Part shown: in pieces, positions 1-50,453 of the stretch | Numbering within the stretch: the first letter of the stretch is position 1 | Layout of the letters: each line of letters begins with the position of its first letter | Source of the DNA: a virus | Strand: one strand, 5' to 3' | IMG/VR virus record: IMGVR_UViG_3300022225_001767 | DNA: 64,000 nt | The notes under the pieces: model-generated | The model's database searches: none | What the model was told of the DNA's origin: nothing | Seen by the model: the letters and a program-made list of their open reading frames with translations, nothing else | Position numbers and translations under genes: made by a program

Positions 1-102
1 CTAAATCCGGAAGTGAAAGATATCTTCAGTTTCACCTATGACGATTTTGAATTGGTTAATTATCAATGCCACCCTGCTATACAAGCGCCTATCGCAGTAT
101 AG
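1..102 (+). CDS. thyA: Thymidylate synthase, 3' end (partial)
   Basis: Frame 1 reads [33 protein letters not shown], the typical ThyA C-terminus. Confidence 0.9.
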
Positions 103-121
103 AAACTGACATAACTAAGTA

Positions 122-150
122 AAAAGCAGAGCGCTTGGCGCTCTGCTTTT
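122..150. terminator. Bidirectional intrinsic terminator
   Basis: AAAAGCAGAGCGC-TTG-GCGCTCTGCTTTT between convergent genes. Confidence 0.85.
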
Positions 151-153
151 CTT

Positions 154-780
154 TTACGCGGCTTTTTGAAGCTCAGCAAGACGCTGTTTAAGGTGATGGA
201 CCTGACCCTCCGCATTCCCGAAAATGCGCATTCCCATATGTTCTTTTAACACTGTACGATACGCTTGTATCTGCGCTTCAGTCATCACGGTAGACAAGAA
301 ATCTATTTTGACATGGGCGTGATTTCTCTCTCTATAACCACTGCAAACGGCCTCTGCATGGCAAATGAAGGTTGCTTCAGAGCATGTTACAAACTTACTA
401 TCACCGCTCTCCATCTTCTCAATAAATGCCATATACGCAGCGCTCGCTTGTGTTTCATCTCGCATCAGCACAACCCGCTCTGCTTGCTCATGCTGACCTA
501 GGTCAAACAATGCATTTGCTGCAAACATTAACGTTGATTCGTACTGAACTCTGTTGTCACGAAACCATCCACCTTTATGGCTGTTTGACGTGAGCGCATC
601 TGGATTTAAATTGAGTTCTTTTTCTGTTCGCATGTTGAGAGATTGGACTAACATGTTATATTGATTAAATAAGCGGCTAAATCTATTCACGGCCACCAGC
701 GAAAATAAATCTCTATAATGAAGTTCCATATTACACCTTTTGCATTGCGGTGCCCTATCGGCACTTCTTGATGTTATCAC
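154..780 (-). CDS. Hypothetical protein (N-terminal CxxC)
   Basis: 208-aa ORF ending at the terminator; start uncertain. Confidence 0.6.
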   Translation of the reverse strand: MITSRSADRAPQCKRCNMELHYRDLFSLVAVNRFSRLFNQYNMLVQSLNMRTEKELNLNPDALTSNSHKGGWFRDNRVQYESTLMFAANALFDLGQHEQAERVVLMRDETQASAAYMAFIEKMESGDSKFVTCSEATFICHAEAVCSGYRERNHAHVKIDFLSTVMTEAQIQAYRTVLKEHMGMRIFGNAEGQVHHLKQRLAELQKAA

Positions 781-5779: not shown

Positions 5780-5823
5780 TTGAACCACCACTCTCCTTGT
5801 GTTATCATTAAAAGTGTCAACAC
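5780..5823 (+). promoter_or_regulatory. sigma70 promoter with GTCAACAC leader motif
   Basis: TTGAAC-17-TATCAT-7-GTCAACAC(5816-5823), AAGGAG, ATG 5835. Confidence 0.7.
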
Positions 5824-5834
5824 AAGGAGTAATT

Positions 5835-6371
5835 ATGTCCCTCAAAATATCTACACCTTTCACAGTTATCTCTGGCGGTCAGACTGGCGCTGATGTCGCG
5901 GGGCTTGCTGCTGCACATAAACTAGGTATCCCTACCACAGGTTGGGCCCCAAAAGGCTTTAAAACCGAAAAAGGCCCCAAGAAAATATTGCAGTCGCGTT
6001 ATGGCTTAATTGAAGATGAGAGTAGAGACTACGGCCCTCGAACCGTAAAAAATGCACACGCAGCAGACATTACATTTATCTTTTCCCCTCAGCAAAAGTC
6101 CAGCGGAACGGTAAAAACAATAAACGCCTGCATTGAGTCAGGGTGCGCTTACGTGGTTTACACTGAATGTAATGATGCAACGACGCGGTCTATCTTAAAT
6201 TACTTGATGCTTATGAAACCTATGGTTGTGAATATTGCAGGTAATCGTGAGTCAAAATGTCGTGGGTTGTCAAAGCAGGTTGTTGGGTGTTTAACACCTG
6301 CACTAAAAAGCTACCTAAACGACGTTACGCGGAACGGAATAATCCCCGTTTACCGCCACGCTAAAAAATAA
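5835..6371 (+). CDS. SLOG-superfamily protein (putative molybdenum-carrier-like family)
   Basis: ISGGQTGADVAGL...GWAPKG...RTVKN...NIAGNRES. Confidence 0.8.
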   Translation: MSLKISTPFTVISGGQTGADVAGLAAAHKLGIPTTGWAPKGFKTEKGPKKILQSRYGLIEDESRDYGPRTVKNAHAADITFIFSPQQKSSGTVKTINACIESGCAYVVYTECNDATTRSILNYLMLMKPMVVNIAGNRESKCRGLSKQVVGCLTPALKSYLNDVTRNGIIPVYRHAKK

Positions 6372-17795: not shown

Positions 17796-19013
17796 TTAGC
17801 CCTCCTTCGCTTCTTGCTTCCACTGCTCACGGAACATCTTCACTTCACGCTCGATGTCATCAAGCTCCGGTGGCGCAGGAATGTTCATTTCTTTTAACAG
17901 ATAAGACGCGACCGCTTTATGGTTCCAAGGACGGTCTTCGTAACCACCACGGAAGTTCTTACAACGCCCCACCCACTCTTTGTTGTTATGAGTAAGGTCG
18001 ATAGTCGACCACTTGTCTAAAAGCCCCCAGTCTGCTTTACCGGGACCTTTCGCCTCCAAGTTCATCTTCACAACCTTGGCAACAATGGCCAGCGACTTGA
18101 AGAATGTGGCGGTACCAATGACCGTCTTCTCTCTTACATCAGGCGCTGACATGTCTTTGTTCATTGCGCGACCAAAGGTAGGATTTCGGCATAGTTCAGA
18201 AAAGAACTTGCTTGTAAACCCTGCGATATAAGCACGATCCTCTGGCTTTTCCAATAGGTTCTGAGCGGTGGCTTTCGTGGTGCCCGTCAGCTTCAGGATG
18301 AATGCCCCTATTTGATTGAGTGTCCATAAATACGGCGACTCTGAGCTTGATGTAACGGATGCCTTTGTGTAGCTCACATTGCCCATGAGGGGGTATTGCT
18401 GAGATAGTTCTCGGCTAAACACAGACACTACCTTTCGCGAATCCATGGCCGCTTTTTGGCTCTGATTAAAGGCCTTCGAGCTTGTGTTGATGTCCACGCA
18501 GATTTGGTTGTCTTTTGTGGCACCCATTGAGCGAATAAACTTAACGTCAAAGTGCTGTTCCGACAAATCAATGCCATCAAATTTCGATTGCATTAAGATT
18601 TCAATGCCACCACGTCGACCTTGCCCATCTACTAAATAGCGAAAGCTTTCAGCAGGTATTGTTAGGGCATACACATTCCCGACGACCGGCGTTAATGTGA
18701 AATCCTCTACAATAGCCATCAGTCCCGGAAAAATAAACACGGCGGTATTATCTTTCACATAATTTGCCACGCCATTTGCGCGTGAATGGTCTAAGTCTCG
18801 CTGGATCATGATGTGAGACGGCATATCAATATCCTGAGGCACCCGAGGGAATCCCTCAATCAAGGTGTCCATTGGCACCTTACCCACATAAGTAAGTCGC
18901 TCCCCTTCACGCCCTTCTGTGACGTAGAAAGTTAAATCTTTCTTTACACGAAGCGCATTGTAAAGCGCATTCAGTTTTTCGTTATCTTCGAATGTAAGTT
19001 GTACTGGTAGCAT
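17796..19013 (-). CDS. DndB-like (DGQHR-family) protein
   Basis: IQRDLDHSRANGVANYV...FPGL...YLVDGQGRRGGIE...DINTSSK...LWTLNQI matches the DndB layout; DGQHR reads DGQGR. Confidence 0.82.
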   Translation of the reverse strand: MLPVQLTFEDNEKLNALYNALRVKKDLTFYVTEGREGERLTYVGKVPMDTLIEGFPRVPQDIDMPSHIMIQRDLDHSRANGVANYVKDNTAVFIFPGLMAIVEDFTLTPVVGNVYALTIPAESFRYLVDGQGRRGGIEILMQSKFDGIDLSEQHFDVKFIRSMGATKDNQICVDINTSSKAFNQSQKAAMDSRKVVSVFSRELSQQYPLMGNVSYTKASVTSSSESPYLWTLNQIGAFILKLTGTTKATAQNLLEKPEDRAYIAGFTSKFFSELCRNPTFGRAMNKDMSAPDVREKTVIGTATFFKSLAIVAKVVKMNLEAKGPGKADWGLLDKWSTIDLTHNNKEWVGRCKNFRGGYEDRPWNHKAVASYLLKEMNIPAPPELDDIEREVKMFREQWKQEAKEG

Positions 19014-23710: not shown

Positions 23711-24901
23711 ATGATTATGAATATGCTTTCACATCGGCCGATGAACCGTCACCTTGAATTTTTCGCAGGCCATGGCGGTACAGGGTTTGGTCTTTCAGGA
23801 AACTGGCAAACCATTTGGGCCAATGATATCGATCCTGTTAAGGCTGAAGCGTTCTCGTTAAATCACCGTGTAAGCATGCTGTGCAAGTCTATCAGCGACG
23901 TTAGCGCAAACGACATCCCTGATGGCGATCTCATGTCAGCGACGTTTCCATGCACTAACACATCCGCTGCTGGCGATAGAACTGGATTGCTTGGCATCAA
24001 GTCTGGTGTGGTTTATCAGTGGCTGCAACGTCTCACTGAGCGAGGTGGTGCGGCACACTACCCAATGGCAATGCTTGAGAATCCAATGGGGCTCGTGTCT
24101 CGAAATCAGGGCAATGATCTTGCTGATCTTATTCAACGTTTAAATGCACTAGGGTACGCGGTAAACCTTTCTGTCGTTGACGGCAAACATTTTGTCCCAC
24201 AATCTCGACCGCGCATTTTCATTAGTGCTATCGCACATGATGCCGCAGAGAATGTGTACAATCGCATAACAAGCGCGTCTCTACCCTTACATAACAAAGA
24301 ATTGTACCCTAACCCTTTACAGAACTGGATGGCACGTTTCGCTAATGCGCTTTTGCTCGTTGCACCAAGCGACACACCATCGCTTCCTGAACGTCACCTA
24401 CAGTTGGTTGACTGTCTCTCGTTGGATGATAAAAATGATGGCTCGTGGGCGAGTGAAGAAGAAACCAAGAACATCATAGACAACCTTGTTGGGCCTCATC
24501 TGGAGCGCTTTAATAAGATGCTCTGTAGCCCTCATACCATGGTTGCCACTATTGCAAGGCGAGGACGCCAAAAAGCAGATGGGACGCGATTTAACGCGGC
24601 GGAAATTTCTCTCAGTGGGTTATGCCCCGCGCTTCGTCCTTACAAAGGTGGTTCGAGTCGCACATGGGTGCTTGTGGCAGGTCAAGGCCAGTATGCTGTT
24701 AAAGTTATCACGCCTCGTGAAACCGCGAGAATAATGGGGTACCCTGACAGTTACCAATTACCTAAAGATAAAAAAGCCGCCTATCAGTGCACGGGTGATT
24801 CGGTAGTGCCTCAGGCTGTGGCATGGGTTGACGCCAATATACTGCAACCTGTCATCAAGGCGCATTGCAGTCATGGTGATCAGCTTGGCATGCCATTATA
24901 A
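23711..24901 (+). CDS. C5 cytosine DNA methyltransferase
   Basis: FFAGHGG, TFPC, ENP, QSRPRIF, TGDSV. Confidence 0.9.
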   Translation: MIMNMLSHRPMNRHLEFFAGHGGTGFGLSGNWQTIWANDIDPVKAEAFSLNHRVSMLCKSISDVSANDIPDGDLMSATFPCTNTSAAGDRTGLLGIKSGVVYQWLQRLTERGGAAHYPMAMLENPMGLVSRNQGNDLADLIQRLNALGYAVNLSVVDGKHFVPQSRPRIFISAIAHDAAENVYNRITSASLPLHNKELYPNPLQNWMARFANALLLVAPSDTPSLPERHLQLVDCLSLDDKNDGSWASEEETKNIIDNLVGPHLERFNKMLCSPHTMVATIARRGRQKADGTRFNAAEISLSGLCPALRPYKGGSSRTWVLVAGQGQYAVKVITPRETARIMGYPDSYQLPKDKKAAYQCTGDSVVPQAVAWVDANILQPVIKAHCSHGDQLGMPL

Positions 24902-25612: not shown

Positions 25613-26971
25613 TTAGGCTGCTCTTGCTAGCGGATCAACCAAACTAAATCGTCGCTTATCACTATCACGACGTGACAAGGCTTTCATTGATTCTTGATAC
25701 GTGAAATCCGTTGCTTTTTTGCAGGTTTGTATATCTTTCACTTTCAACGGGGTTGTCAGCTTTAATTTATCTAACGTTTTTATGCGACTCAAGGTTACAT
25801 AAGACAGGCCGGCTTCGTTATAATTCCCACTCAGATCGATTTCAGCTTCATTTAAAGTCATGCCTTGGCTTTTATGCGCAGTGATGGCGTAGCCTAACCT
25901 AACAGGTAATTGCTTAAAGGTTCCTACGGCTTGTTTGGCTAATCCATCGCCATTCGTATTGTATGCAAAATTCTCCCACGTATGGGGAGTAACATGCACC
26001 ACACCACCCCTATCCAACCTAACGTTAATTCCTTTAGGTGTGACACCGACAAGGACACCCAAGTCGCCGTTCTGGAATCGGCGATCGGGGTCGTTCACCA
26101 TCAATAACAAGCGACAGCCACGCTTCAGCACAATGTTATCTTCAACCATTTTTAATTTATTCGGGAAACGCCCTTTTACTTTTCCATGCGCAGTGAAGGC
26201 AGGTGCTTTAACTTTAGCCATAGCACTCGCGTTAATCGCGGACACTTTCTTGTTTGTTTTACATATTTTCAAGGCATCTTCAGACACGAGCCCCAATGCG
26301 CGCGTATTGAAGAAACGAACCACTTTATCTAAATTGTGCCCCATTCTCAGAGACCGCATTACGCGTCGGGTCAGCGGATCGGATTGGCGCACGTATTCAT
26401 TTAGTACATAGGACGTAAAACCGCCCCTTGTATAGGACGATGACTCAAACAAATAGCGTCTATTTTCGTACTGTCGTTTAAACCATCCCTGTTGAGTATC
26501 GCCAGCCAGAACAGGCGGTAATTGGCAAAAATCACCAACTAAGATAACTTGCACACCACCGAAGTATCGACTATTTCCTTTAGCCGCCCGAAACCGTGCT
26601 TCCATTTGCTCAAAAAGATCTATGCGGACCATGCTATCTTCATCAATGAGAATGGCCTTACAGGCAGCCAACCTTTCTCTTGTTGCACGGTTCATGTTGC
26701 GCGCATCTTCAAGGTTTTTTACATCCTTCCCAAACCCCATAAAGCTGGCAAGTGTTTGGCCTTGAATAGGTATGCTGGCAATACCTGTGCTCGCCGTTAT
26801 AACCAGTTCAGGTAAGATTTTTGATAGGAAGTTAATCATGTGCGATTTGCCTACACCACCACCTCCCATGATCAACATGTTTTCACCCGTTAAAGCAGCA
26901 AGCGCGCAAATCTTTTGACCTTCATTTAAGGTCTTGAATTCAGGCAGTCTTTTTACTTCAAATGGCGTCAT
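25613..26971 (-). CDS. PIF1/RecD-like SF1B DNA helicase
   Basis: GGGGVGKS, DEDSM, GDFCQLPPV, VRQ, AITAHKSQGMTL, YVTLSR. Confidence 0.9.
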   Translation of the reverse strand: MTPFEVKRLPEFKTLNEGQKICALAALTGENMLIMGGGGVGKSHMINFLSKILPELVITASTGIASIPIQGQTLASFMGFGKDVKNLEDARNMNRATRERLAACKAILIDEDSMVRIDLFEQMEARFRAAKGNSRYFGGVQVILVGDFCQLPPVLAGDTQQGWFKRQYENRRYLFESSSYTRGGFTSYVLNEYVRQSDPLTRRVMRSLRMGHNLDKVVRFFNTRALGLVSEDALKICKTNKKVSAINASAMAKVKAPAFTAHGKVKGRFPNKLKMVEDNIVLKRGCRLLLMVNDPDRRFQNGDLGVLVGVTPKGINVRLDRGGVVHVTPHTWENFAYNTNGDGLAKQAVGTFKQLPVRLGYAITAHKSQGMTLNEAEIDLSGNYNEAGLSYVTLSRIKTLDKLKLTTPLKVKDIQTCKKATDFTYQESMKALSRRDSDKRRFSLVDPLARAA

Positions 26972-26985
26972 GGTGGTCTCTTGCT

Positions 26986-27028
26986 GTGTTGACCACACAA
27001 CTATACCAAAAAACGCGAGATTTTGAAA
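26986..27028 (-). promoter_or_regulatory. Promoter with GTCAACAC leader motif
   Basis: TTTCAA-17-TATAGT-6-GTCAACAC(26993-26986), ATG 26971. Confidence 0.65.
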
Positions 27029-27034
27029 CAAAAA

Positions 27035-27056
27035 AAGCACCGAAGGTGCTTCTTTT
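27035..27056. terminator. Intrinsic terminator
   Basis: AAGCACC-GAA-GGTGCTT with A/T flanks. Confidence 0.7.
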
Positions 27057-35777: not shown

Positions 35778-36818
35778 ATGAAGAAAACATCTCTATTTGC
35801 ATCTGTTGCCCTAGCTTGCGCGATGCCATTTGCAGCATCAGCTGAACTCTCACTAATGGGTTATAATGTTGCGGATGTACCAAGCAACACAACACTAAGT
35901 GAAGTCAATGAAACAACAAGTTACATCGGAGACGTCACTTACCTCACCGCCATTCAAAAAACTGACGACAATAGCACTTACAGCGTGTCTTTGTCTGTTG
36001 ATTTTGACGGTGCTTATAATGCCGCTGCACGATGTACCACACTATCTAACTCTCTGTTTGAAAGCTACGCTGAAGAATATTCTGCAACGCAAGGCGACGA
36101 CAGTTCGGCTCTTACTTTCACTGATGAATATGGCGCAACGTTACGCCTAGAAGACGGCTGTTATACCAGCAACACGCTCTCTTTGACACTAAGCTCTCCG
36201 ACTGAAATCAGTGCGCCTTTAGGCGATACAGAAGAAGCGCTGCTTTACATCATCACCACCGATGCCCCACTGTCTTCAGACGGCGACGTTGAGCAAGGTG
36301 AGCCTGAAGATGGCGACCATAAATATTACGGCCCCGGCCCAACGCCGGTTGACGTTGAAGCGACTGGATCGATTCGTCCTATTGGCAAGGTAACCCAAAA
36401 ACCTGCCAAAGAAGGCAACCACAAGTTCTACGGCCCGGGCCCTGTACAGCCTATCTACAAGACCGCTGAAGCAGGCATTAGTAAACTTCGTCCTGTTGGC
36501 AAGGTAACCCAAAAACCTGCTAAAGAAGGCAACCACAAGTTTTACGGCCCAGGTCCTGTACAACCTATCTACAAGACCGCTGAAGCAGGCATTAGTAAAC
36601 TTCGTCCTGTTGGCAAGGTAACCCAAAAACCTGCTAAAGAAGGCAATCATAAGCGCTTCGGTCCGGGCCCTGTACAGCCCATCTACAAGACCGCTGAAGC
36701 AGGTGTTAGCAGCTTGCGCCCTGTTGGCAAGGTAACCCAAAAACCTGCCAAAGAAGGCAACCACAAGTTCTACGGCCCGGGCCCTGTAAAACCAGTTAAC
36801 CCCTTTGGACTTCGCTAA
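35778..36818 (+). CDS. Secreted protein with acidic N-domain and basic 38-aa tandem repeats
   Basis: Signal peptide; unit RPVGKVTQKPAKEGNHKFYGPGPVQPIYKTAEAGISKL. Confidence 0.85.
   Translation: MKKTSLFASVALACAMPFAASAELSLMGYNVADVPSNTTLSEVNETTSYIGDVTYLTAIQKTDDNSTYSVSLSVDFDGAYNAAARCTTLSNSLFESYAEEYSATQGDDSSALTFTDEYGATLRLEDGCYTSNTLSLTLSSPTEISAPLGDTEEALLYIITTDAPLSSDGDVEQGEPEDGDHKYYGPGPTPVDVEATGSIRPIGKVTQKPAKEGNHKFYGPGPVQPIYKTAEAGISKLRPVGKVTQKPAKEGNHKFYGPGPVQPIYKTAEAGISKLRPVGKVTQKPAKEGNHKRFGPGPVQPIYKTAEAGVSSLRPVGKVTQKPAKEGNHKFYGPGPVKPVNPFGLR
36370..36790 (+). repeat. 114-bp in-frame tandem repeat (about 3.7 copies)
   Basis: GGCAAGGTAACCCAAAAACCTG recurs every 114 bp. Confidence 0.9.
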
Positions 36819-36838: not shown

Positions 36839-36866
36839 AAAAAAAGGCGCGCTTCGCGCCTTTTTT
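36839..36866. terminator. Intrinsic terminator
   Basis: AAAAAAAGGCGCG-CTT-CGCGCCTTTTTT. Confidence 0.85.
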
Positions 36867-36867
36867 A

Positions 36868-36910
36868 TTGATTTCTCACCCCTGTTTTGAGATAATAACC
36901 ATGTCAACAC
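36868..36910 (+). promoter_or_regulatory. sigma70 promoter with GTCAACAC leader motif
   Basis: TTGATT-17-GATAAT-6-GTCAACAC(36903-36910). Confidence 0.7.
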
Positions 36911-36927
36911 AACAGGGTAAAACCACA

Positions 36928-38769
36928 ATGCATAACACACCATTAGCTTCTTTTAGCTCTATCGATGATCCTCAACTTCCAGTCGAGGTTATCCGTGTAA
37001 TCAAAGATCGTTTAGGTGACATACCATCATCAGGCATTGCCGCAGGCCAAGCGGTTGCCAGTGCCATCTTTTATCTTCTAGGTCTCCATGATGGCGTTTT
37101 CAACGACATTGACGTATTTCTCCCCAAATCAAGCGATATCGCTAAGCTCATGGGTGAGTCTTGGAACCCCAAACTTCGCGCAGACAATGACCTTGTTACA
37201 CTCACACACGGTTATCGAGAGACGGGTTTTTCTTCACCCGTTTTCAAAAAAGGTCATTATTACATCATTGGCTCATGCTATTTAGGCAACGTCAATATTG
37301 TTGTTGTCGACAATTTTAATCACTCCCAAATTGGCGCTCAGGATATCATTGGCGGTTTCGACATCAACGCATGTGAAGCAGCGATTGATCTTGAGTCTAT
37401 GACGCTTACGGTATCAGATGCCTTTCGAGACTTCATTAAACACTGGGTACTTGATATCACCACCTATCACACACCAGCACACACCGCGCTTCGCATTGCA
37501 AGAAAGTCACGAGCATTGAACGCTCGCGTCAACAGCACCGCCATGCTTCGTTTGCAAACCATGCTCGCCATCGCAGAAGCCGAAGAGCGACATTATTCGC
37601 TCAATTACACGCGCGGCATGCTAATGGCAGAAAATAACGCGGAAAAAGCAGCTAATGAGCCTCTGGTATGCGAGCACTTCACTTTCCGTGATGTAACCAT
37701 TCAAATTCCGATGGAAGAGGAAGAGGAAGCGTTCATGACGCTAATGCAGCTTTCACCAAAAGCCTGTCACGATGGCGTGGTGGACGCTTACATGTCAGTC
37801 ATTTCCTTTTTAGGGGCACCCGACTTTAGTGTTGCCGCCGCGATTTTTCCTTATCTATGGGATCGTGTCGCCAATAAAGGTGATGATAGCGCCGTGAAGT
37901 GGTTAATAGAAGAAGCGACCGCGCGCGACGCGATGAAACGGGATTGGTTGAGTCGCCCTCAGAGTGAAGAAGAAGAAGCGCTTTATGCAGAAGCATGCGA
38001 AAGGGGCGAGCGTCGTGATGCGCTACTGATGATCTTTATTTGCGCCTTAAGACACCATAACCCTCGTGTATTCAAGTCTCAATCAACATGCATTAACCGC
38101 GCGCTAAAAATGGCAGAGAAACACCCTTTAGCGTTCAGTAAAAATGAAAAGCACCTGACATCTCTAGATGATGCTATCTTGTTTGGGAAAAACCTAAACT
38201 GGTTAGAGAAAAAGCGACTTCATTTAGTGATAGGGATGTATGAAGATAACACGACCTTACTTCCCGCGCTGTCCAACAGACAGTATAAAGCAGCGTTAAT
38301 GCCAATTCTTGACGCCATTTTCTCTAGGATGGAGAACGAACGCGTGACGCCCATTGGAGAAAAGCTAGTCAATGCTCTTAACGCAACAGGCAAAATAAAA
38401 GTGACAGAGTTGACCTCAGAGCTAGAAATGCTTGAGCAAGGTTATGCACAAAAGCATTGTGTTGGTGGTTATTTTCATCAGGTAAAATCAAGGCAGTGTA
38501 TTATTCTTGATGTAGTAACACCTGAAGAGAAAAAATACACCGTGGAATACCGTGTAGTCACACGCGACGGCGAATTTGGTTTTACCAAAAACCAATGCAA
38601 AGGCGTCAACAACCGCCCCATGCCACAAGAGATTAAAAAGCTACTTCCTGAATTCTTCAGCGACAATGGGCACGAGAAAGAGTGGTTCCTAAAAAACACT
38701 TACGCTTCACAGCGAGGTCTACAAGGGAACGAGATAGATTTTGATTATGACGATGATATACCTTTTTAG
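36928..38769 (+). CDS. Class-II nucleotidyltransferase-like / PcfJ-domain fusion with SSB-like acidic tail
   Basis: AGQAVAS...NDIDVF, FDINACEAA, TPAHTALR; LTSELEMLEQGYAQKHCVGGY (PcfJ); ends DFDYDDDIPF. Confidence 0.7.
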   Translation: MHNTPLASFSSIDDPQLPVEVIRVIKDRLGDIPSSGIAAGQAVASAIFYLLGLHDGVFNDIDVFLPKSSDIAKLMGESWNPKLRADNDLVTLTHGYRETGFSSPVFKKGHYYIIGSCYLGNVNIVVVDNFNHSQIGAQDIIGGFDINACEAAIDLESMTLTVSDAFRDFIKHWVLDITTYHTPAHTALRIARKSRALNARVNSTAMLRLQTMLAIAEAEERHYSLNYTRGMLMAENNAEKAANEPLVCEHFTFRDVTIQIPMEEEEEAFMTLMQLSPKACHDGVVDAYMSVISFLGAPDFSVAAAIFPYLWDRVANKGDDSAVKWLIEEATARDAMKRDWLSRPQSEEEEALYAEACERGERRDALLMIFICALRHHNPRVFKSQSTCINRALKMAEKHPLAFSKNEKHLTSLDDAILFGKNLNWLEKKRLHLVIGMYEDNTTLLPALSNRQYKAALMPILDAIFSRMENERVTPIGEKLVNALNATGKIKVTELTSELEMLEQGYAQKHCVGGYFHQVKSRQCIILDVVTPEEKKYTVEYRVVTRDGEFGFTKNQCKGVNNRPMPQEIKKLLPEFFSDNGHEKEWFLKNTYASQRGLQGNEIDFDYDDDIPF

Positions 38770-38868: not shown

Positions 38869-38898
38869 GTTGACTTTGAGGTCAACATTTGAGATTAT
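38869..38898 (+). promoter_or_regulatory. sigma70 promoter with GTTGAC-N6-GTCAAC palindrome
   Basis: Palindrome 38869-38886; TTGACT-17-GATTAT. Confidence 0.65.
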
Positions 38899-38925: not shown

Positions 38926-39285
38926 ATGTCATTATCTGTTGTCGTGTCTCGAAACTCAATGAGCGAAAGCACCTATGCCAAAATTGAATTTGAACCACAA
39001 GGACACGTTTGTGATGCTGAAAGCCTAAAGGCGGGTATTACACGGGCTGTATCTCGCTGGATCAGTGAAACGGATATTGGCATGCAGGTTTGGTCAGCCA
39101 ATTGCCAAGACTTCAATATTGGCGACCTAGCTCTTCAAGACATTTCCGAAAACAGCGATTTAGGTCGACGGTTACGAGAGGAAGACGTGGTTATTGTCAA
39201 TCTTGAAGTAGACTCATGCGACAATACCTCATGGGCATTTGACGCGCCTCTTTTTGATGATGATGACATAAGCGAGCGTGTTTAA
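38926..39285 (+). CDS. Hypothetical acidic protein
   Basis: GAGAGG RBS. Confidence 0.7.
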   Translation: MSLSVVVSRNSMSESTYAKIEFEPQGHVCDAESLKAGITRAVSRWISETDIGMQVWSANCQDFNIGDLALQDISENSDLGRRLREEDVVIVNLEVDSCDNTSWAFDAPLFDDDDISERV

Positions 39286-49190: not shown

Positions 49191-50297
49191 TCATTCTGCC
49201 ACAGTGACATTGTCGACATGCCCCATGAAATCACAATTGTAATTAGGCTTGATAATTTTGTTCACATACCCCCCTTTACGATCACTTAATAAGAGATCTT
49301 CATAAACCTCTGTTGGCACATTGTGGTACATATAAACACGATCTTTAAGCAGCAAGTATAAGTTCGCATTGTCATATCGGTACCCATGCACCCAACCCGA
49401 GTCAGTAATTGGCAAGAAGTCTGCTGGCAACTCTGGTTTCTTGACCACCAAGTCTAATAATGCAAGCAGCACTTCTCTTGGTGGGCGATTTTGGGGAAGG
49501 TTACCAAAACCTTGCGCTTCTAGAATGGTGTATCGGCTAAACTCAATGCCATAGCGCGGTTTCCCGTTTTCAAAAAGCCCTATGACTGAGCTTTCACTGT
49601 TCGCTACTTTTCGTGAGTACGAGCCGTTACCAATACAAAAGCTTAGCGCCTCACCAAGATCAATCATATCATAGTGCGTTTCAGGCACCCTTATGACCAA
49701 GCCCTCAGTGAGTTCTTTTTTATCTAACTGAACAACGTCCTCTCTTTGATTAAGAGGGAAGTTTTCTTGGCTCACCTTAGGCAGGGTCCTCACAGCAGCA
49801 TCATGGACCATGGTTAATGACTTAGGCTTTTTCGGCAAATACTTGATATCAGACCGGCGTTCGTAAATGTTAAACATCATATCCATTGTGTCACGAAGGC
49901 TGACTAACGGTGCCTCTGTAAGCAGTTTGAATATACGATCATCATTGTAATAGCGACGTAAAAGGGTGATGTCTTTTACTCGTAATGACTTTGCTTCATC
50001 CAGGGGTATGTCGCATTTACACAGTGTATGCAGCTGAATGAGTTTATCGATGCTAAACTTTGCTCGGTAAAGCGGTGTCGCTATCAATAGGTGGCTTAGA
50101 GTATGAGGGTTATTTGTTACACTCCGAACAAAACGACGCATGCCTTTCGTGATATTGTCCACACCAGGGAACACCATATCCACGATGCTATCAATTACTT
50201 CTTCTCCTTTTTCATCCAGCAAAGTAAGCTGAGTTATCCATTTGCTAGACAGGTCAAGATAATGTTCCGATATGTAATCACGCAATGCACTTTTCAT
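49191..50297 (-). CDS. PcfJ-domain protein with C-terminal KTSC domain
   Basis: PETHYDMIDLGEALSFCIG..Y (PcfJ); DSGWVHGYRYD...YMYHNVPTEVYEDLLLSDRKGGYVNKIIKPNY (KTSC). Confidence 0.75.
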   Translation of the reverse strand: MKSALRDYISEHYLDLSSKWITQLTLLDEKGEEVIDSIVDMVFPGVDNITKGMRRFVRSVTNNPHTLSHLLIATPLYRAKFSIDKLIQLHTLCKCDIPLDEAKSLRVKDITLLRRYYNDDRIFKLLTEAPLVSLRDTMDMMFNIYERRSDIKYLPKKPKSLTMVHDAAVRTLPKVSQENFPLNQREDVVQLDKKELTEGLVIRVPETHYDMIDLGEALSFCIGNGSYSRKVANSESSVIGLFENGKPRYGIEFSRYTILEAQGFGNLPQNRPPREVLLALLDLVVKKPELPADFLPITDSGWVHGYRYDNANLYLLLKDRVYMYHNVPTEVYEDLLLSDRKGGYVNKIIKPNYNCDFMGHVDNVTVAE

Positions 50298-50453
50298 AAA
50301 ACGACGCCCTCTTTTTGCATGACTTATTTTAACATTGCTAACCCACATTCTCAACAAAATATCACCACTAGTAAGGAATATTTATTCTGTTTTTTTATTG
50401 TATTTTGTGCAGGGTTAGGTATAATGAAACAACTCTAATTTAGGAGATTAAAC

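Follow-up and report, generated by a model that had tools for sequence, protein, structure and literature searches.

A stretch of 64,000 nucleotides from the virus record IMGVR_UViG_3300022225_001767 of IMG/VR was analyzed, and this whole stretch is hereafter called the window. It contains a gene for a 613-residue protein in which a nucleotidyltransferase (NTase) domain and a PcfJ domain are linked by a helical region, and which ends in DFDYDDDIPF, a motif resembling the C-terminal tip of SSB, the bacterial single-stranded DNA-binding protein. The results below show how the domains of the protein are arranged, its fold, which catalytic residues are conserved, that the linker is disordered, that the tail occurs across the family and that there is remote homology to Gad2. 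Binding of the tail to pockets of SSB partners, the possible substrates and an anti-defence role are inferences, which are discussed after the results.

The region from 36868 (TTG) to 38769 on the plus strand is a single long open frame. Read from the ATG at 36928, it translates to 613 amino acids with the C-terminus ...QGNEIDFDYDDDIPF and then the stop, and the last residues before the stop codon in this reading are ...GNEIDFDYDDDIPF. The tail DFDYDDDIPF, which the original prediction had named as a mimic of the SSB tip, was confirmed by the translation; it is terminal, and the stop codon stands directly after it. The coordinates of the gene, its domains and the other features are listed in Table 1.

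Table 1. Features of the NTase-PcfJ gene, its product, the shared leader tag and related sequences (positions in the window unless an accession is given).
Feature	Position (nt)	Residues	Strand	Evidence or remark
CDS, 613-residue NTase-PcfJ protein	36928–38769		+	stop codon counted in; 92–96%-identical homologues span the full length
Predicted class-II-type NTase head and neck, Gad2-like	36955–37698	10–257	+	model, fold matches, invariant columns, hhalign
All-helical middle region	37768–38337	281–470	+	model secondary structure; conservation
PcfJ domain	38338–38697	471–590	+	Pfam PF14284 at residues 486–571
Flexible linker	38698–38736	591–603	+	pLDDT <50 at 594–611 (whole model) and 184–196 (PcfJ domain model)
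SSB C-terminal tip motif DFDYDDDIPF	38737–38766	604–613	+	extreme C-terminus
Bidirectional intrinsic terminator hairpin	36840–36866		.	12-pair stem, T-runs on both strands (terminator scan)
Sigma-70-type promoter	36868–36896		+	-35 TTGATT at 36868, 17-nt spacer with TG, -10 GATAAT at 36891
Shared 5' leader tag GTCAACACAA	36903–36912		+	common to the putatively co-regulated genes of the element
Tag copies GTCAACACA	848, 5816, 23693, 36903, 40960, 42453, 51265, 59238		+	
Tag copies GTCAACACA	59003, 57171, 47814, 35471, 28246, 26993, 19040		-	
Tagged C5 methylase gene (orphan methylase)	23711–24901		+	tag 23693, ATG 23711
Tagged PIF1-like helicase gene	25613–27040		-	tag 26993
Tagged DndB gene	17796–19013		-	tag 19040
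Tagged cpYpsA SLOG protein gene	5799–6371			tag regulon
Tagged ORF 40982			+	tag 40960
N-domain relative	LR745206.1: 330642–331226			huge uncultured phage
N-domain relative	LR756502.1: 365337–365894			huge uncultured phage

The structure model, made with AlphaFold2 on 122 family sequences, had a predicted local distance difference test (pLDDT) score of 85.2 and a predicted template modeling (pTM) score of 0.83 for the whole protein. Three stretches were disordered (residues 1–3, 78–106, and 594–611), the second of which is a 29-residue insert inside the NTase head. The best VIA-align match of model residues 10–255 was the CCA-adding enzyme of Thermotoga maritima (3h39_A; Z 11.8, root-mean-square deviation 4.0, 197 residues), and the top 32 entries were class-II NTases or FAM46 throughout (Z 6.6–11.8). 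Foldseek against the PDB ranked class-II tRNA nucleotidyltransferases first (3wfq, E 2.3e-4, probability 0.99), and below them came the CCA-adding enzyme of T. maritima, the A-adding enzyme of Aquifex, 3aqk–3aqm (which we take to be a bacterial poly(A) polymerase, the title in the table being merely "bacterial protein") and FAM46. These matches support an NTase fold of class-II type for the modeled N-terminal domain, as the original prediction had proposed.

Pol-beta-type nucleotidyltransferases carry a signature of a glycine turn, a DxD motif and a third aspartate. This signature was present as G40, D60, D62, and D145, with the predicted strands placed as expected. Invariant in the 122-sequence alignment were G40, D60, D62, F144, D145, N147, R189, and K193, the two basic residues R189 and K193 lying on the first neck helix. 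All three N-terminal motifs that had been quoted from the letters (GQAVASAIF...NDIDVF, FDINAC, and PAHTALR) were found. Given the conserved active-site signature, the NTase domain looks catalytically intact.

A Pfam scan at E up to 1 returned PcfJ as the sole match, with neither PolyA_pol nor SSB (PF00436), and the family profile found no NTase chain among solved structures at E up to 10. Among the conserved columns of the 122-sequence alignment, the class-II RRD and EDxxR motifs were not seen. At the level of sequence, the N-domain does not appear to be a member of the PolyA_pol family. The protein had also been described as something other than an SSB, and this agreed with the Pfam scan and with the model, which consists of the NTase head, helices and PcfJ and has no oligonucleotide/oligosaccharide-binding (OB) fold.

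The middle region kept H399 and G436 in at least 90% of the family alignment, and gave no specific fold match. At the C-terminus, the PcfJ domain that had been predicted there passed the Pfam gathering cut-off (E 1.3e-8, 35.3 bits vs. 25). Positions conserved in this domain at 90% or more were E494, G505, H510-C511-V512, G514, Y515, T538, and N562, and its HCVGxY core lies at residues 510–515. The domain folded separately with a pLDDT of 89.6. When this model was compared by VIA-align with 48,161 chains, nearly all of the top 50 were GNAT acetyltransferases, with Z of 5.6 at most and Foldseek E of at least 0.08, which is within the noise range of the tool. The HC(X)5R phosphatase signature was considered for HCVGGY and rejected, because there is no Arg at C+6. 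NCBIfam gave no match to the 613-residue protein, and the PHROGs matches were confined to the PcfJ part and belonged to families of unknown function. In the literature searched, nothing functional on PcfJ proteins was found, and a word-indexed search for short PcfJ relatives returned fragments only.

A second PcfJ protein of 388 residues is encoded in the window at 49191–50357 on the minus strand (PcfJ E 5.9e-9), with KTSC as its C-terminal domain. Both the NTase domain and the SSB-type tail are absent from it, so that the element has two PcfJ architectures.

Gad2 is a 400-residue predicted nucleotidyltransferase; its knock-out leaves phage SPbetaL7 sensitive to Gabija, and the Brevibacillus homologue of Gad2 blocks Gabija (preprint 10.1101/2023.05.01.538930). 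Reviews from 2026 list its mechanism as unknown (PMC12904381; PMC13728456). In the ESM Atlas, the 613-residue protein adjoined clusters, mostly from Uroviricota, with PF14284 PcfJ (41%) and PF26128 Gad2 (17, 69, and 24% across the three top-ranked clusters). The annotated gad2 of Bacillus phage SPbetaL7 (OQ921347.1; L069 2501–3700) was taken as the reference. BLASTP aligned query residues 34–229 with Gad2 residues 25–199 at E 6e-5, and the glycine turn, the NDxD motif, the FDxxxC motif and the P...LR..K helix were in register. The family profile and a profile of 38 Gad2 homologues were aligned by hhalign over 200 columns (E 1.1e-5, probability 81.7%; family positions 18–269 vs. Gad2 13–215). 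The hidden Markov model (HMM) of the family matched 20 of 120 Gad2 proteins at E <1e-3, and PF26128 was absent from the precomputed Pfam annotation of close homologues. Together, these comparisons indicate that the N-domain and the Gad2 NTase are distantly related, without the N-domain belonging to the Gad2 family proper.

The C-terminal tail and its distribution

The end of the protein has the acidic residues, the hydrophobic-Pro-Phe terminus at the extreme C-terminus and the disordered linker of the SSB C-terminal motif. Both linker and tip were disordered in the model and were not docked on the body of the protein. From amino-acid frequencies, the chance that a random protein ends in DDDIPF is ~2e-8, and no other frame of at least 40 codons in the window had an acidic-hydrophobic-Pro-Phe tail. 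In Escherichia coli, no fewer than 17 partner proteins bind the tip of SSB, which comprises its last nine residues (...DFDDDIPF; PMC10018359, PMC7145534, PMC5872125). The original prediction had named ExoI, RecJ, RecQ, PriA and Pol III chi among the enzymes that such a tail might recruit or titrate.

When 1.84 billion cluster representatives were searched with a profile, 3641 matched at E ≤1e-3, 300 of them at ≤1e-30. The tail was counted in the best 150 of the 3641 matches, which are less than 50% identical to one another and ~20% identical to the query; almost all have 540–720 residues and were matched in both the N-domain and the PcfJ domain. An IPF end was found in 55 of these 150 representatives, and an end of the form [ILVMFC]P[FWL] in 73. 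Among the 73 tailed representatives, position -3 was Ile in 60, position -2 was Pro in all, and position -1 was Phe in 68. Asp or Glu occupied position -4 in 68% and position -5 in 66%, and Lys or Arg was rare within the last 12 positions. The family consensus of the tail is [DE][DE]IPF, with ends such as EEFDDDIPF, DDEFLDDIPF, DDLSDDIPF, and AEDDDDIPF. The same picture was obtained from 51 metagenome loci. A closer homologue (P0004, 42% identical to the query), which came from a word-indexed search that yielded few relatives, ends in DFDFDDDIPF. Conservation of the tail in homologues had been named as a check on the original prediction, and the outcome was favorable, the tail being kept in this homologue at 42% identity and in roughly half of the ~20%-identical family. 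The SSB-type tail is a trait of the whole family, not of the 613-residue protein alone. The database entry P0005 is a chimera of 340 residues, in which the tail reads DDDTHF and the sequence then continues.

Two controls were made. At the metagenome loci, the SSB-type tail was found in 9 of 34 family open reading frames (ORFs) vs. 1 of ~696 neighboring non-family ORFs, and a survey of 400 genomes found it in none of ~9 PcfJ proteins without the NTase motif. The sole tailed non-family ORF (L032 18248–18715, plus strand; 155 residues, ending in PEEDMLPF) may be an element-encoded SSB, and the NTase-PcfJ family member on the same contig has no tail. In a Chloroflexota metagenome-assembled genome (MAG), the family member ends in IDFDDDIPF and one of the two SSBs ends in DDDDDDIPF. 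An SSB of a Piscinibacter MAG that carries a family member ends in MDDDIPF. Tandem paralogues were found at two loci, with xPF tails on both copies in one (L027 8501–10453 and 10614–12575) and a tail on one copy of two in the other (L018 378–2414 and 2524–4491). Acidic VPF or IPF ends were also found in 3 of 120 true Gad2 homologues (P0226, P0233, and P0257, with DLSGVPF, DQSDVPF, and DVEVIPF), and therefore the SSB-type tip occurs within the Gad2 family proper too.

Relatives were found on megaplasmids of Alteromonas, Vibrio, and Aromatoleum, and relatives of the N-domain (28–29% identity) on uncultured phages of 634–642 kb. The family is thus common to megaplasmid-like elements and megaphages. 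Metagenome contigs of up to 1.46 Mb carry relatives, several of them with two copies; two distant copies each were found on Ga0265798_10000066, Ga0265798_10000058, Ga0308158_10000004, and OULZ01000012.1. A scan of viral contigs gave one locus. When 730 ORFs from 31 loci were compared all-against-all by BLASTP, no partner gene recurred in more than four loci, and the Pfam families among 148 flanking proteins were scattered (NUDIX in three, ClpX in two, and others).

Upstream signals and element context

The hairpin in front of the NTase-PcfJ gene terminates the upstream gene (35778–36818) and insulates the NTase-PcfJ gene from it. The promoter that follows agrees with the consensus at 9 of 12 positions, and GAGATAATAA was found again at three further tagged promoters. 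The distance from the leader tag to the ATG is 25 nt for the NTase-PcfJ gene and 18–22 nt for the other tagged genes. The start at 36928 is favored because of this tag-to-start spacing (18–25 nt), so that promoter and tag both back the start chosen in the original prediction. The tagged promoter reported there also held, with the leader tag present upstream of the gene and 15 copies of the 9-mer GTCAACACA(A) across the window, eight on the plus and seven on the minus strand. The leader tag seems to mark a regulon comprising the NTase-PcfJ gene, the C5 methylase, the PIF1-like helicase, DndB, cpYpsA SLOG and several unknowns.

The window encodes four DNA methyltransferases, the PIF1-like helicase, DndB, a long PAPS-reductase-like gene, an SLT-LysM lytic transglycosylase, the cpYpsA SLOG protein and many ORFs without a family match. 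Its content resembles that of an accessory region in a large mobile element, which we read as marine and plasmid-like.

The 346-residue product of the upstream gene (plus strand) begins with a stretch like a signal peptide and contains four repeats of ~37 residues that are nearly identical (...KVTQKPAKEGNHKFYGPGPVQPIYKTAEAGISKLRPVG...); Pfam gives no match to it. The next gene downstream, at 38926–39285 on the plus strand, has a separate promoter-like site at 38870–38898. Its product of 119 residues has no family match and ends in ...APLFDDDDISERV, with an acidic FDDDDI stretch near the C-terminus, not at the very end.

Possible role of the NTase-PcfJ protein

We propose that the protein is an active NTase whose SSB-type tip guides it to the usual binders of SSB tails, and that it serves in anti-defence or establishment; we put the chances of this at about even. 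The enzyme would be of the template-independent type, with the class-II tRNA nucleotidyltransferase fold joined via the helical region to PcfJ. A flexible linker of ~20 residues would present the tip, which would most likely insert into the SSB-tail pockets of genome-maintenance and defence proteins of the host or the element. Such docking would bring the enzyme to proteins at SSB-coated single-stranded DNA (ssDNA), and at high dose the NTase-PcfJ protein might compete with SSB for its partners. The gene would be transcribed from its tagged promoter alongside the orphan methylase, the PIF1-like helicase and the DndB module, and the product might act as an early establishment or anti-defence factor. 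This role is the most economical one because of the kinship with Gad2 and the co-regulation with the methylase and the DNA-modification module.

Several points weigh against this proposal. The tip is missing from roughly half of the family. In a tree of 122 members, built without the last 25 residues, the tail was present in 68, and at least 26 gains or losses are needed to account for it; the tail is therefore dispensable in many lineages. Near-identical marine contigs vary at this position, with DDDTPF on one (L005 269–2170, CETA01061440.1, Tara) and DDNIPF on another (L006 2325–4235). The kinship with Gad2 has its limits as well: the Gad2 HMM matched just 1 of 153 family members at E <1e-3, the alignment stops at Gad2 residue 215 and the C-terminal half of Gad2 is absent from the NTase-PcfJ protein, and most Gad2 proteins have no SSB-type tail. 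No conserved neighbor gene in the 31 loci indicates a pathway; therefore, the NTase-PcfJ gene probably acts as a stand-alone unit. A decoy role alone would need no enzyme of 600 residues, and the SSB tip binds the partners of SSB, not SSB-coated DNA. As to the scattered occurrence of the tail, we judge repeated loss to be far likelier than repeated independent invention of an Ile-Pro-Phe end, and the trait is accordingly read as old and often lost.

Another explanation, which we consider rather unlikely, is that the protein serves the replication of the element itself, its tip binding a helicase of the element (e.g., the tagged PIF1-like one), a primase or a polymerase, so that it would be a hub for replication or for processing the element's DNA ends and not a counter to host defence. 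The co-regulation with the PIF1-like helicase is consistent with this, and so is the presence of family members on very large contigs and megaphages with replication genes of their own. However, no replication gene was a conserved neighbor in the 31 loci, and the tip copies the host-type DDDIPF and is not a private variant.

Alternatively, the protein might be an RNA 3'-end enzyme, whether CCA-adding, poly(A)-polymerase-like or involved in tRNA repair, with a tail that is secondary or irrelevant. The top structural matches, tRNA CCA- and A-adding enzymes and bacterial poly(A) polymerase, point in this direction, and the viral fold matches include a phage "tRNA nucleotidyltransferase" and a "poly A polymerase head domain." Against it stand the failure of Pfam PolyA_pol (E up to 1) and of solved NTases to match, and the RRD and EDxxR motifs missing from the conserved columns. 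It would also leave the SSB-type tip in half of a diverse family unexplained, and we regard it as having quite a low probability. It is still less probable that the acidic IPF end is some other signal (for degradation, for secretion or of beta-clamp type, or a peptide that binds the protein's own domains) with a merely convergent likeness to SSB: loose variants in part of the family (NPPPF, DEFDEVF, and DDDFF) speak for this, but the acidic residues at -4 and -5, Ile at -3, Pro at -2 and Phe at -1 before a free carboxyl are the positions that define the SSB tip (PMC5872125, PMC10018359, PMC7145534), the clamp motif QL[SD]LF and the ssrA-type LAA end differ, and the undocked tail of the model does not suggest binding to its own body.

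The proposal of an NTase directed by an SSB-type tip can be extended to Gad2-type NTases as a class, which might act via the SSB interactome: the tip would carry the enzyme to host defence or repair proteins with SSB-tail pockets, or to the DNA ends on which these work, and the enzyme would nucleotidylate the protein or tail a DNA or RNA end and so disarm defences that sense ends or ssDNA, such as Gabija. We give this extension little chance. If true, it would explain the mechanism of Gad2 and represent a new enzymatic anti-defence strategy by mimicry of a hub peptide. The SSB tip is an address label by which over a dozen enzymes of replication, repair and recombination are brought to ssDNA. 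Here it is conserved in a large family of enzymes from mobile elements, not described before, and not on a DNA-binding protein, which suggests that an enzyme is plugged straight into the SSB hub by plasmids and phages. The tail thus offers a concrete lead on the mechanism of Gad2-like anti-defence enzymes, and proteins annotated as PcfJ gain a first structural and functional context.

Comparison with known systems

Gad2 (PF26128; SPbetaL7 and the homologue in a Brevibacillus laterosporus prophage) shares with the NTase-PcfJ protein the motif order AGG/AGQ-A-h-x-S, ND-h-D-h-[YF]F, FD-x-x-x-C/Q, and P...LR..K, and both families are carried by mobile elements. Gad2 differs in its length of ~400 residues and its different C-terminal half, has no PcfJ domain and usually no SSB-type tail, and the identity is ~20%.

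The class-II NTases (CCA- and A-adding enzymes, poly(A) polymerase I) and FAM46/TENT5 share the head-and-neck fold (Z 9–11.8 over ~190–200 residues) and the order of a glycine turn, then DxD, and a third Asp. Unlike class-II NTases, the NTase-PcfJ protein has the 29-residue disordered insert in the head and different downstream domains, and no tRNA-binding body and tail were identified in it. Like the PcfJ-like proteins of conjugative plasmids and phages (PF14284), it scores above the Pfam cut-off and has retained the HCVGxY core, whereas PcfJ proteins without the NTase domain have no SSB-type tail.

The tip resembles that of bacterial SSB (E. coli ...MDFDDDIPF) in the disordered linker, the acidic run and the Ile-Pro-Phe at a free C-terminus, and both DFD and DDDIPF are present. 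It differs in that a Tyr is inserted within the acidic run, that the linker has ~13–20 residues vs. ~56 in E. coli SSB (PMC7145534), and that it sits on an enzyme and not on a ssDNA-binding protein of OB-fold or other type. None of the literature searched describes a family of enzymes, as distinct from SSBs, that bears an SSB tip; the nearest published remark is that prophage DUF669 ssDNA-binding proteins carry DDDIPF (PMC13687109). Each of the three parts (Gad2-type NTase, PcfJ domain, SSB tip) is known already; what is new is that they occur together and that the tip is conserved in a family of several hundred clusters.

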